The position numbers and the translations under genes were made by a program. A stretch of DNA of 64,000 nucleotides. It comes from a virus. The stretch is from positions 64,001 to 128,000 of the IMG/VR virus record IMGVR_UViG_3300005731_000013; one strand, given 5' to 3'. Shown here piece after piece: positions 11,620 to 12,710 of the stretch. Position 1 is the first letter of the stretch; every line of letters begins with the position of its first letter. Below the pieces are notes generated by a model. It worked only from the letters and a program-made list of their open reading frames with translations, ran no database searches and was not told the DNA's origin.

Positions 11620-12462
11620 TTGGCTGAAAATCCACTTAAACAGTATTCTAAACGTCCAGGGACATTTGTATCATTGCCGTCAGACGGGAAATTTTATACT
11701 GTGCCACCTGAAATGTCAGCTGACGGAGAAATCGAGATCCGCCCAATGACTGCTAGTGATGAAATCAAACTAAAAAATCCTGATGGGCTAATGAATTCTG
11801 AATCATTGTTTCAAGTTATTGAACATATTGCTCCTGGAATCGCAAATGCAAAAGACATTCCTACTCCAGATTTAGATATTATTGTCATAGGGATGCGGTT
11901 AGCAACCTATGGTCAATTTATGGATGTGAATGTCACATGCAAAAATTGTTCTCATACCGAAAACTATCAAATCAATTTGTCAAATGTATTGGCAAGTGCA
12001 GGAAAAATTACTGCGCCTGATAAAGTTAATGTAGGGGGGTTGGTTGTATCGATTCGTCCACATACGACAGAATCAAATACCATGTATTCAAATTATCAAG
12101 TTGAACTATTACGCGCTGCTAGAATGGTTGAAACTAATGTAATGGAAAATAAAGAACCTCTTAATAAACAATTGGCCGAAATTATGGCGAAAGGATCACA
12201 AATTTTATATGAAATTGCAATGAATCATGTCACATCTGTAATGATGCCTGATGGCAATAGTATAACTGATAAATCATTGATTAAAGAATGGTTAGCTGAT
12301 TTAGCTGCGCCTGACTATCAGTTGGTCCGTGACGCAGTTAATGCATTGAGCAAAGAACAGATTGACCGTAATGTGTCATTCCATTGTACTCAATGTGAGA
12401 CTGAAAATAAGGTCGAAGTATCATTTGATCCTGCAAATTTTTTCGGAGCCAGCTCGCTTTAA
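11620..12462 (+). CDS. gp26: Baseplate hub assembly protein, gp26 family
   Basis: VSLPSDGKFY, EIRPMTASDE, two CxxC pairs (CKNC, CTQC), C-terminal NFF; TTG start with AAGGA. Confidence 0.85.
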   Translation: MAENPLKQYSKRPGTFVSLPSDGKFYTVPPEMSADGEIEIRPMTASDEIKLKNPDGLMNSESLFQVIEHIAPGIANAKDIPTPDLDIIVIGMRLATYGQFMDVNVTCKNCSHTENYQINLSNVLASAGKITAPDKVNVGGLVVSIRPHTTESNTMYSNYQVELLRAARMVETNVMENKEPLNKQLAEIMAKGSQILYEIAMNHVTSVMMPDGNSITDKSLIKEWLADLAAPDYQLVRDAVNALSKEQIDRNVSFHCTQCETENKVEVSFDPANFFGASSL

Positions 12463-12495
12463 CAACAAGTTATAATGAGGTCCAAGAGCTGGTTC
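12435..12495 (+). other. Predicted programmed -1 ribosomal frameshift signal
   Basis: In-frame overlapping heptamers A_AAT_TTT (12435-41) and T_TTT_TTC (12438-44); 10-bp stem 12446-55/12486-95 just downstream. Confidence 0.75.
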
Positions 12496-12710
12496 AAAAA
12501 TATGAGACGCAAACAGATTTGTTCATTAAAGATTTAATGCGTATCAGTGTATTAGGACCTGTGCCATACGAAGATGTAGTCAATATGACACCAAAAGAAC
12601 GAAAAATATTATCAGATGTATTACAAGAACGAGCAGATGCACAGAACCCAAACAAAAAGACACAACAGCTAGAACCAGGTGTTGTGTCAGGACCAGTACG
12701 GAATTTATAA
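12441..12710 (+). CDS. gp51: gp51-like baseplate hub assembly catalyst, probably the -1 frameshift extension of gp26
   Basis: YEDVVNMTPKERKIL resembles gp51; frame open from 12429 (after TGA 12426-28) to 12710 with no ATG before 12537. Confidence 0.7.
   Translation, partial: FRSQLALTTSYNEVQELVQKYETQTDLFIKDLMRISVLGPVPYEDVVNMTPKERKILSDVLQERADAQNPNKKTQQLEPGVVSGPVRNL

Follow-up and report, generated by a model that had tools for sequence, protein, structure and literature searches.

A conserved U_UUU_UUC heptamer and a probable -1 frameshift producing short and long gp26-type proteins in a jumbo-phage-like viral contig

We analyzed a 64,000-nucleotide stretch of viral DNA (positions 64,001 to 128,000 of IMG/VR record IMGVR_UViG_3300005731_000013; hereafter the window), which is part of a 168-kb contig of an uncultured giant T4-related phage; the contig was rated about 46% complete. 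The subject is the gp26-type gene of the window, the sole PF12322 gene of the contig, and the reading frame that overlaps its 3' end. A first-pass annotation, made from the letters of the sequence, had proposed that a programmed -1 frameshift fuses gp26 to a gp51-like sequence in the downstream frame, like the lambda tail chaperones G and GT. This proposal was supported by the conservation of heptamer, frame and tail in 36 loci, by purifying selection on the tail frame, and by natural long forms encoded in one frame. The production of two chaperone forms from one gene by ribosomal -1 frameshifting was the best explanation of the locus, and we put its probability at roughly 0.75. The features concerned are as follows.

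11620 to 12462, plus strand: gp26-type gene, short form of 280 amino acids (PF12322 T4_baseplate / phrog_150 baseplate-hub assembly protein); it has two CxxC pairs and a terminal F-F.
12426 to 12428, plus strand: TGA that closes the -1 frame, 10 nucleotides upstream of the heptamer, read directly from the sequence.
12438 to 12444, plus strand: slippery heptamer T_TTT_TTC (U_UUU_UUC), 0 frame xxT TTT TTC, the putative -1 shift site, conserved in relatives.
12444 to 12710, plus strand: -1 frame extension of 88 codons plus stop, the gp51-type C-terminal tail; this frame is open from 12429, with its stop at 12708-10.
12446 to 12495, plus strand: possible stimulatory stem-loop downstream of the shift site, with arms at 12446-55 and 12486-95 (-21.4 kcal/mol, z = -2.9 in comparison with shuffles).

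The TTG at 11620 is the apparent start of the gp26 open reading frame (ORF), and an N-terminal octapeptide that is identical in distant relatives supports that start. The 3' end of the ORF reads GCA AAT TTT TTC GGA GCC AGC TCG CTT TAA. The protein matched PF12322 with 63.1 bits (gathering cut-off 24.5, E = 3.9e-17, residues 19-275) and phrog_150 with E = 1.6e-20. Residues C107, C110, C256, C259, F274, and F275 were invariant in the gp26 alignments A2 and A5, and the terminal F-F was common to the window protein and T4 gp26. The isolates closest by gp26 (25-30% identity) were jumbo myoviruses, namely Atu_ph07, PA5oct, GAP32/CBB, and RaK2/121Q-like phages.

Inspection of the 3' end of gp26 confirmed two overlapping heptamers in X_XXY_YYZ phase, namely A_AAT_TTT (12435-41) and T_TTT_TTC (12438-44). 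It also confirmed that the -1 frame has a stop at 12426-28, is then open to 12710, and has its first ATG at 12537. Further candidate starts in this tail frame are TTG at 12519 and CTG at 12489, and the ORF reported there by the gene caller (P0075) is 63 amino acids long and begins at TTG 12519. The product sizes were recomputed and the same figures were obtained, 280 amino acids by standard decoding and 275 + 88 = 363 amino acids after a -1 slip. Nine T_TTT_TTY-type heptamers were present in ORFs of the whole window, and the one in gp26 alone preceded a -1 ORF of at least 60 codons.

The conservation of the site was examined in relatives. The gp26 loci of the jumbo clade were picked by protein similarity away from the junction, and came from four isolate clades and from uncultured contigs. 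This sample comprised 31 loci with 28 distinct tail sequences; 21 non-redundant gp26 genes were used for the site statistics. Addition of S-PM2, P-SSM2, HTVC008M, phiM12, and KVP40 gave a set of 36 single-gene loci. In 36 of 36 loci, the heptamer and the -1 relation were kept, as was the encoded tail. An alignment of gp26 3' ends had been suggested as a check on the frame relation among homologues, and this relation was a constant -1 in all 36. An in-frame xxT TTT TT(C/T) was found in 31/31 jumbo-clade loci, where the gp26 stop followed 0-11 codons later (as many as 18 in two loci of the CBB clade), and the heptamer was also found in 5/5 of the single-gene T4-like phages. In every one of the 31 jumbo-clade loci the -1 frame opened 13-79 nucleotides before the gp26 stop and encoded a homologous tail of 70-96 residues, in which R or Q (Y in XacN1), then x-x-L, was recognizable from the first codon after the slip. 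In several relatives a -1 stop directly adjoins the heptamer and the 0 frame ends one or two codons on, which confines the shift to 13 nucleotides or fewer. Because the stops in both frames close around the heptamer in these loci, no other shift point is possible there. Of the two overlapping heptamers, T_TTT_TTC was conserved, but A_AAT_TTT was present in 7/31 loci, hence not conserved, and it was rejected as the functional heptamer.

The conservation of the heptamer acts at the nucleotide level. The codon before it always ended in T, for any of seven encoded amino acids. The second Phe codon was TTC in 20/21 loci, whereas elsewhere in the same genes TTC made up 34% and TTT 66% of the Phe codons. 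T_TTT_TTY occurred in frame at 1 of 5,506 other codon positions in the 21 non-redundant gp26 genes, in comparison with 21 of 21 at the shift site, and the presence of the heptamer at the gp26 3' end is thus far beyond chance. The T run was extended to T7 in XacN1 and phiM12 and to T8 in HTVC008M. In T4 gp26 the terminal F-F is spelled TTC TTT, which is non-slippery, and the -1 frame is blocked. T_TTT_TTC was missing from the short genes of two-gene phages (9/9).

The translation of the tail frame was then considered. The entire tail frame of PA5oct was free of ATG, GTG, and TTG codons. The earliest candidate start lay at codon 37 in loci L012 and L026 and at codon 31 in RaK2, inside the conserved domain, and the candidate starts of the window (CTG 12489, TTG 12519, and ATG 12537) fall within the conserved peptide, 16-32 codons from its beginning. 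In the start-less part outside the gp26 overlap, the ratio of non-synonymous to synonymous differences (pN/pS) was 0.42-0.54 in the -1 frame in comparison with 0.72-1.83 in the other frames, in three separate clades. The tail frame is under purifying selection. On this sequence evidence, the tail is probably translated, and not from a start of its own.

We analyzed the identity of the tail by profile comparison. The tail, alone or as part of the -1 product, gave no match in Pfam, PHROG, or a phage tblastn search, and none of its 86 small-ORF homologues had a precomputed Pfam match. T4 gp51 and gp26 are paralogues, both in PF12322/phrog_150; gp51 has about 48 extra C-terminal residues, and gp26 consists of the body only. 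In a MAFFT alignment, gp51 ran through the junction at which the conceptual long forms change frame, and gp26 stopped there. The 28 jumbo tails matched 10 T4-group gp51 tails by hhalign with 80% probability (E = 1.3e-5, score 28.6). A column-shuffle null gave a score of 9.5 +/- 2.2, none of 400 shuffles reached 28.6, and reversed profiles scored about 9. Tails of the cyanophage/KVP40 type matched the T4-group tails with 97% probability (E = 1.5e-11) and are nearer to T4 gp51 than the jumbo tails are; in these phages an ATG follows soon after the heptamer. When they were added as a bridge, the match of the jumbo tails to gp51-type tails rose to 90% (E = 1.6e-6). Profiles were needed on both sides, as a single-sequence hhalign of the tail against T4 gp51 gave a probability of 0.5%.

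S-PM2, P-SSM2, HTVC008M, phiM12, and KVP40 have one PF12322 gene each, which ends in the same heptamer, and their -1 tails are plainly gp51-like. The short ORFs called 'gp51 baseplate hub assembly catalyst' in database records are the -1 tails of these single-gene phages; PF28602 is annotated on gp51 in database records. P-SSM2 (PSSM2_014/015), KVP40 (KVP40.0328/0327), and phrog_634 show the same architecture and heptamer, the annotated stub being the -1 tail, and the KVP40 record notes that its stub resembles the C-terminus of T4 gp51. The family phrog_634 (short gp51), which holds stubs of the cyanophage/KVP40 type, does not detect the window tail. It had no match in the genome of the window, and in four jumbo genomes it gave one weak match only (E = 0.028), away from the gp26 locus. 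The label "gp51-like" was therefore right in a specific sense, in that the -1 tail is homologous to the C-terminal ~48 residues of T4 gp51. In T4, gene 51 does not follow gene 26. Judged by these profiles, the extra 88 residues of the predicted long form of the window correspond to the T4 gp51 C-terminal tail.

The number of PF12322 genes was one in complete jumbo genomes and in genomes of the cyanophage/KVP40 type, and two in T4. A word-indexed search for longer fused forms found none, but an exhaustive tail-profile search of a library of 1.84 billion proteins did recover such forms; it gave 431 homologues, in-frame fusions included. Among the best 150 cluster representatives, about 20 were proteins of 319-351 amino acids with PF12322 body and tail in one frame and a non-slippery single-F junction. 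In genomes with this in-frame long form, the long gene lies directly after a separate short PF12322 gene (287-300 amino acids), in the order portal, large protein, gp26. The T6 run was present in neither the short nor the long gene of this jumbo two-gene lineage. Wherever the tail is encoded in frame (T4 gp51 and the 319-351-amino-acid proteins), it is fused to a PF12322 body. The predicted fold of a natural long form had a predicted local distance difference test (pLDDT) score of 90, with the tail as an ordered helical unit.

In a maximum-likelihood tree, T4-group gp26 and gp51 formed one clade (96/98) that was nested among the frameshift-type lineages, and the second two-gene lineage nested separately inside the jumbo clade (96/95). 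Because the two-gene states nest separately, one-gene and two-gene states were exchanged at least twice; the tree was midpoint-rooted only, and the direction of change was taken from parsimony. Gene order also varied within the T4 group. In RB16-type phages (L046/L047: RB16, KP13MC5-1), genes 51, 26, and 25 are tandem and co-directional and follow genes 48 and 54, and in T4, 44RR, VR7, and Pm5461, genes 26-25 are divergent from gene 51. The difference between these arrangements shows that the paralogues were rearranged within the T4 group.

The RNA downstream of the heptamer was examined for structure. A z score of -2 or below was obtained in 14/21 lineages in comparison with 4/84 control windows inside gp26 (p = 5e-7). 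The 5' arm of these hairpins usually starts about 6 nucleotides after the heptamer. The 3' partners differ between clades, and no single RNA structure was conserved across clades, which suggests selection for having a structure and not for one particular fold. The 10-bp stem reported downstream of the window heptamer proved to be real, with the energy and z score given above, but it starts 1 nucleotide after the conserved heptamer. Only its core, CAGCTC/GAGCTG, which is common to the window and its two closest relatives (L010 and L011), starts at about +6.

Taken as a ribosomal event, the expression of the locus would proceed as follows. Standard decoding of the single PF12322 gene would give the 280-amino-acid short form, which corresponds to T4 gp26. 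With tRNA-Phe on UUU UUC in both the P and the A site, a minority of ribosomes would slip back one base on U_UUU_UUC (12438-44) and read the -1 frame to 12710, giving the 363-amino-acid long form, and the downstream hairpin probably raises the frequency of the shift. The short and long forms would then cooperate as non-virion chaperones in the assembly of the baseplate hub and the tape measure protein, and phages without the slippery site would encode both forms as duplicated genes. U_UU.U_UU.C and U_UU.U_UU.U shift in E. coli even without a stimulator, and U_UU.C was the second-best A-site tetramer in E. coli tests (PMC4066793). The window site falls in the same heptamer class as the IS3-family U_UU.U_UU.C sites and the U_UUC-type sites that Sharma et al. 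(2014, PMC4066793) tested in E. coli; IS3-family shift sites are often helped by downstream structure (PMC4066793), although they belong to a different biological system. Ribosomal -1 frameshifting was favored because the heptamer is shift-prone and downstream structure is enriched.

The same 363-amino-acid protein would arise if RNA polymerase added one U on the T6 run, so that some mRNAs encoded the long form in one frame. The site is a homopolymer of U6 to U8, with the longest runs in the three phages named above, and some polymerases are known to slip productively on short runs (PMC5009743). The title of the 2022 Virology paper of Vladimirov et al. also speaks for this reading. However, the seventh base is C in 32/36 loci, which holds the run at six even though TTT, at 66%, is the Phe codon that these AT-rich genes prefer, and lengthening would be expected if the polymerase were slipping. 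Appreciable slippage by bacterial RNA polymerases occurs mainly on runs of about 8-9. The T run is, moreover, always in X_XXY_YYZ phase, a regularity partly forced by the conserved F-F, and hairpins at +6 nucleotides fit a ribosomal stimulator. Transcriptional slippage is therefore unlikely, and we infer that ribosomes rather than RNA polymerase slip. It is less probable still, and in our judgment quite improbable, that there is no fusion and that the tail frame is a separate small gene, the gp51 'stub', translated from its own start (CTG 12489, TTG 12519, or ATG 12537) or through reinitiation by ribosomes that have terminated at the gp26 stop. Small ORFs are indeed annotated here by gene callers and in GenBank, as in cyanophages and KVP40; codon 16 is CTG or TTG in the clade of the window and is preceded by GAGG or AGGAG, and in some lineages an ATG overlaps the gp26 stop or lies just past it. 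Against this, the PA5oct tail frame has no canonical start, and in many lineages the first candidate is at codon 31-37, inside the conserved domain. The peptide is conserved from the first codon past the heptamer (R/Q, x-x-L), and purifying selection acts on its start-less part in the -1 frame. The positions of candidate starts are not conserved. A separate gene would also leave unexplained the conserved heptamer, its absence from two-gene phages, and the fusion of every in-frame tail to a PF12322 body, as in T4 gp51 and the 319-351-amino-acid proteins.

The T6 run is a classic site of indel errors, and in-frame long forms occur in other phages, so that a homopolymer error or a recent frameshift mutation might have split one in-frame gene of 363 amino acids. 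This is extremely unlikely. The same break in the same phase was found in 36 independently sequenced loci, including finished isolate genomes from many laboratories and platforms, and sequencing error was rejected on this ground. The in-frame long forms, in addition, have a different, non-slippery junction and stand beside a separate short gene.

The relation of the window gene to known chaperone systems was compared. The T4 proteins gp26 (208 amino acids) and gp51 (249 amino acids) belong to the same PF12322/phrog_150 family as the window gene. The short form of the window ends right after F-F, as T4 gp26 does, and its long form would consist of a body and a homologous C-terminal tail, as gp51 does. 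In contrast, T4 uses two genes with one frame each and no slippery run, and the window uses one gene and a predicted -1 shift; the T4 bodies have about 200 amino acids and the window body has 275. T4 gene 26 also has an additional internal-start product, annotated 26', unlike the window gene. In a published list, gp26 and gp51 are hub assembly chaperones, with gp51 essential and absent from virions (PMC3004832). The CBB virion proteome includes the large neighbor of gp26 and does not list gp26, and one Acinetobacter phage record labels gp51 'tape measure protein assembly chaperone'.

Xu, Hendrix and Duda reportedly described in 2004 a conserved -1 frameshift in the genes for the tail assembly chaperones of long-tailed phages. 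The tail-chaperone frameshifts of these phages, including lambda gpG/gpGT and P2 E/E+E', have been reviewed (PMC5009743). Lambda gpG and gpGT share a common N-terminal body, as do the two window products predicted from the genes, and the long product is made by a -1 slip on a heptamer a few codons before the short-form stop, as is proposed here; the lambda heptamer is G_GGA_AAG and that of the window U_UUU_UUC. The lambda proteins are chaperones for the tape measure and tail and are not in the virion, and the window pair may be likened to them in this respect. The lambda G and GT genes adjoin the tape measure gene, and the window gene adjoins a tape-measure candidate. The analogy with G/GT is reasonable for the window locus as a functional one only, and on it we infer the chaperone function and the clients of the predicted short and long forms. 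The proposed equivalence of gp26/gp51 with G/GT thus stood as regards the short/long architecture and the published chaperone role; fold similarity to solved chaperones was not found in the searches described below, and the tape-measure candidate is not co-directional.

The candidate is the large gene upstream of gp26.

9214 to 11544, minus strand: 776-amino-acid protein, a tape-measure or gp29-type candidate and presumed chaperone client, without a family match and divergently transcribed.

No Pfam or PHROG family was found for this protein. The synteny of portal, large protein, and gp26 was kept across the window and its relatives, with the T4-type portal gene and the 776-amino-acid gene upstream on the opposite strand. 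The RaK2 homologue is annotated as similar to tape measure protein, and mass spectrometry has placed the CBB and PA5oct homologues in the virion (29 peptides in CBB); the similarity of the 776-amino-acid protein to its CBB homologue is weak (E = 4e-5). The tape-measure candidate noted in the first-pass annotation is next to gp26, but it lies upstream and is divergently transcribed, not downstream. In KVP40 and P-SSM2 the order of gp26, tail ORF, and a large co-directional ORF mirrors lambda G, T, and H, the large ORF being a putative tape measure gene only. In KVP40 (L064, 184500-190000) we observed a duplicated tail-tube gene, gp26, the gp51 stub, a 656-amino-acid ORF, and gp3, an order that mirrors lambda V-G-T-H, and in P-SSM2 (L063, 5000-9500) gp26, the gp51 stub, and a 529-amino-acid ORF. 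Neither the 656- nor the 529-amino-acid ORF had a family link to T4 gp29 (phrog_1283).

Several observations weigh against a ribosomal shift in a tail-chaperone gene. Besides the homopolymeric nature of the site, the full stem of the window starts at +2, 1 nucleotide past the heptamer, which is nearer than the usual 5-9 nucleotides. The RaK2/CBB clade showed no convincing downstream structure, and a conserved Shine-Dalgarno-like stimulator was not evident in the 25 nucleotides upstream of the heptamer. An ATG stands 2-4 codons past the heptamer in cyanophages, phiM12, Atu_ph07, and others, and a separately initiated stub is possible there. The solved tail assembly chaperones had no detectable sequence or fold similarity to window gp26: for its AlphaFold model (pLDDT 85), Foldseek gave no match at E <= 0.001 (the HK97 chaperone 2ob9 appeared at E = 1.2), and a wide VIA-align search gave only generic helical-hairpin matches with Z 7-8 and no significant match to a solved chaperone. 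The tape-measure candidate (720-830 amino acids) is upstream and divergent in the window and the jumbo clade, unlike the downstream order of lambda, and the large neighbors shared no family and no detectable similarity with T4 gp29 (phrog_1283).

Other genes near the locus were also noted. Just downstream of it, at 13428-13856 on the minus strand, lies a 142-amino-acid SegE-type GIY-YIG homing endonuclease (PF19835, E = 1e-35). The corresponding region holds endonuclease VII or other genes in relatives, and next to the gp26 pair of L066, and to that of a relative of L065, there is a similar SegE gene. In the two-gene jumbo lineage, the T4-type portal gene of this relative of L065 contains an intein (PF14890 within PF07230). 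An 855-amino-acid ORF at 14153-16720 (minus strand) has an N-terminus that resembles a gp46/SbcC-type recombination endonuclease subunit, as at the same position in relatives; it is interrupted after about 55 residues by a putative intein-like segment, which ends ...THN before the host sequence resumes. Pfam gave no match at 1e-3. The 533-amino-acid protein encoded at 16692-18293 (minus strand) combines DUF7487, HTH_50, a Mom-family region, and a weak match of the restriction-endonuclease type, and has tandem repeats of a motif of about 20 residues near residues 85-140.

Full-text literature searches found no direct description of the shift, and a 2022 Virology paper surfaced only through citations. 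In that paper (Virology 566:9-15), Vladimirov, Gautam and Davidson reportedly identified the genes for the tail assembly chaperones in T4-like phages as a short/long pair. A passage of the PRFect paper (PMC10885494) cites it for the statement that two genes supply the short and long chaperone in some T4-like phages, and a passage of PMC12846349 cites it for -1 frameshift signals of the poly-T kind in 'TAC-N' genes of T4-like phages. Because the latter paper credits the 2022 work with the poly-T signal, the concept is already published. The earlier remark that the frameshift is not standard annotation for T4-like phages held for the records, since it was annotated in none of about 20 examined, but the idea was already in the literature. 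The window case is very probably a real, unannotated example of a known trick, and its novelty is limited. Added here are the jumbo-clade instance in the window, the site statistics, the homology of the jumbo tail to the gp51 tail, a second, independent two-gene lineage, and the arguments for a ribosomal mechanism.

A wider reading, to which we give an even chance, is that the U_UUU_UUC -1 shift is the ancestral and by far the commonest route to short and long hub/tape-measure chaperones across the T4 superfamily, including cyanophages, pelagiphages, KVP40-like phages, and RaK2/PA5oct/Atu_ph07-like jumbo phages. T4 genes 26 and 51 would then be a derived resolution by duplication, which would have arisen at least twice independently, and ribosomes would do the shifting, with stimulation by hairpins, whereas the title of the 2022 paper suggests otherwise for T4-like phages. 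The general rule would then take in the T4 superfamily, which has long been seen as an exception to the near-universal tail-chaperone frameshift, and a one-gene frameshift would explain the apparent lack of a full gene 51 in most T4 relatives. In hundreds of T4-related and jumbo genomes, the 'hypothetical' or 'gp51 stub' ORF after gp26 should be recorded as a -1 extension of gp26, a practice already routine for lambda-like G/GT genes. One recoded gene and two duplicated genes, exchanged at least twice, form a natural experiment, and this exchange opens the ratio of short to long chaperone to study in the cultivable phages PA5oct, RaK2, CBB, KVP40, and S-PM2.

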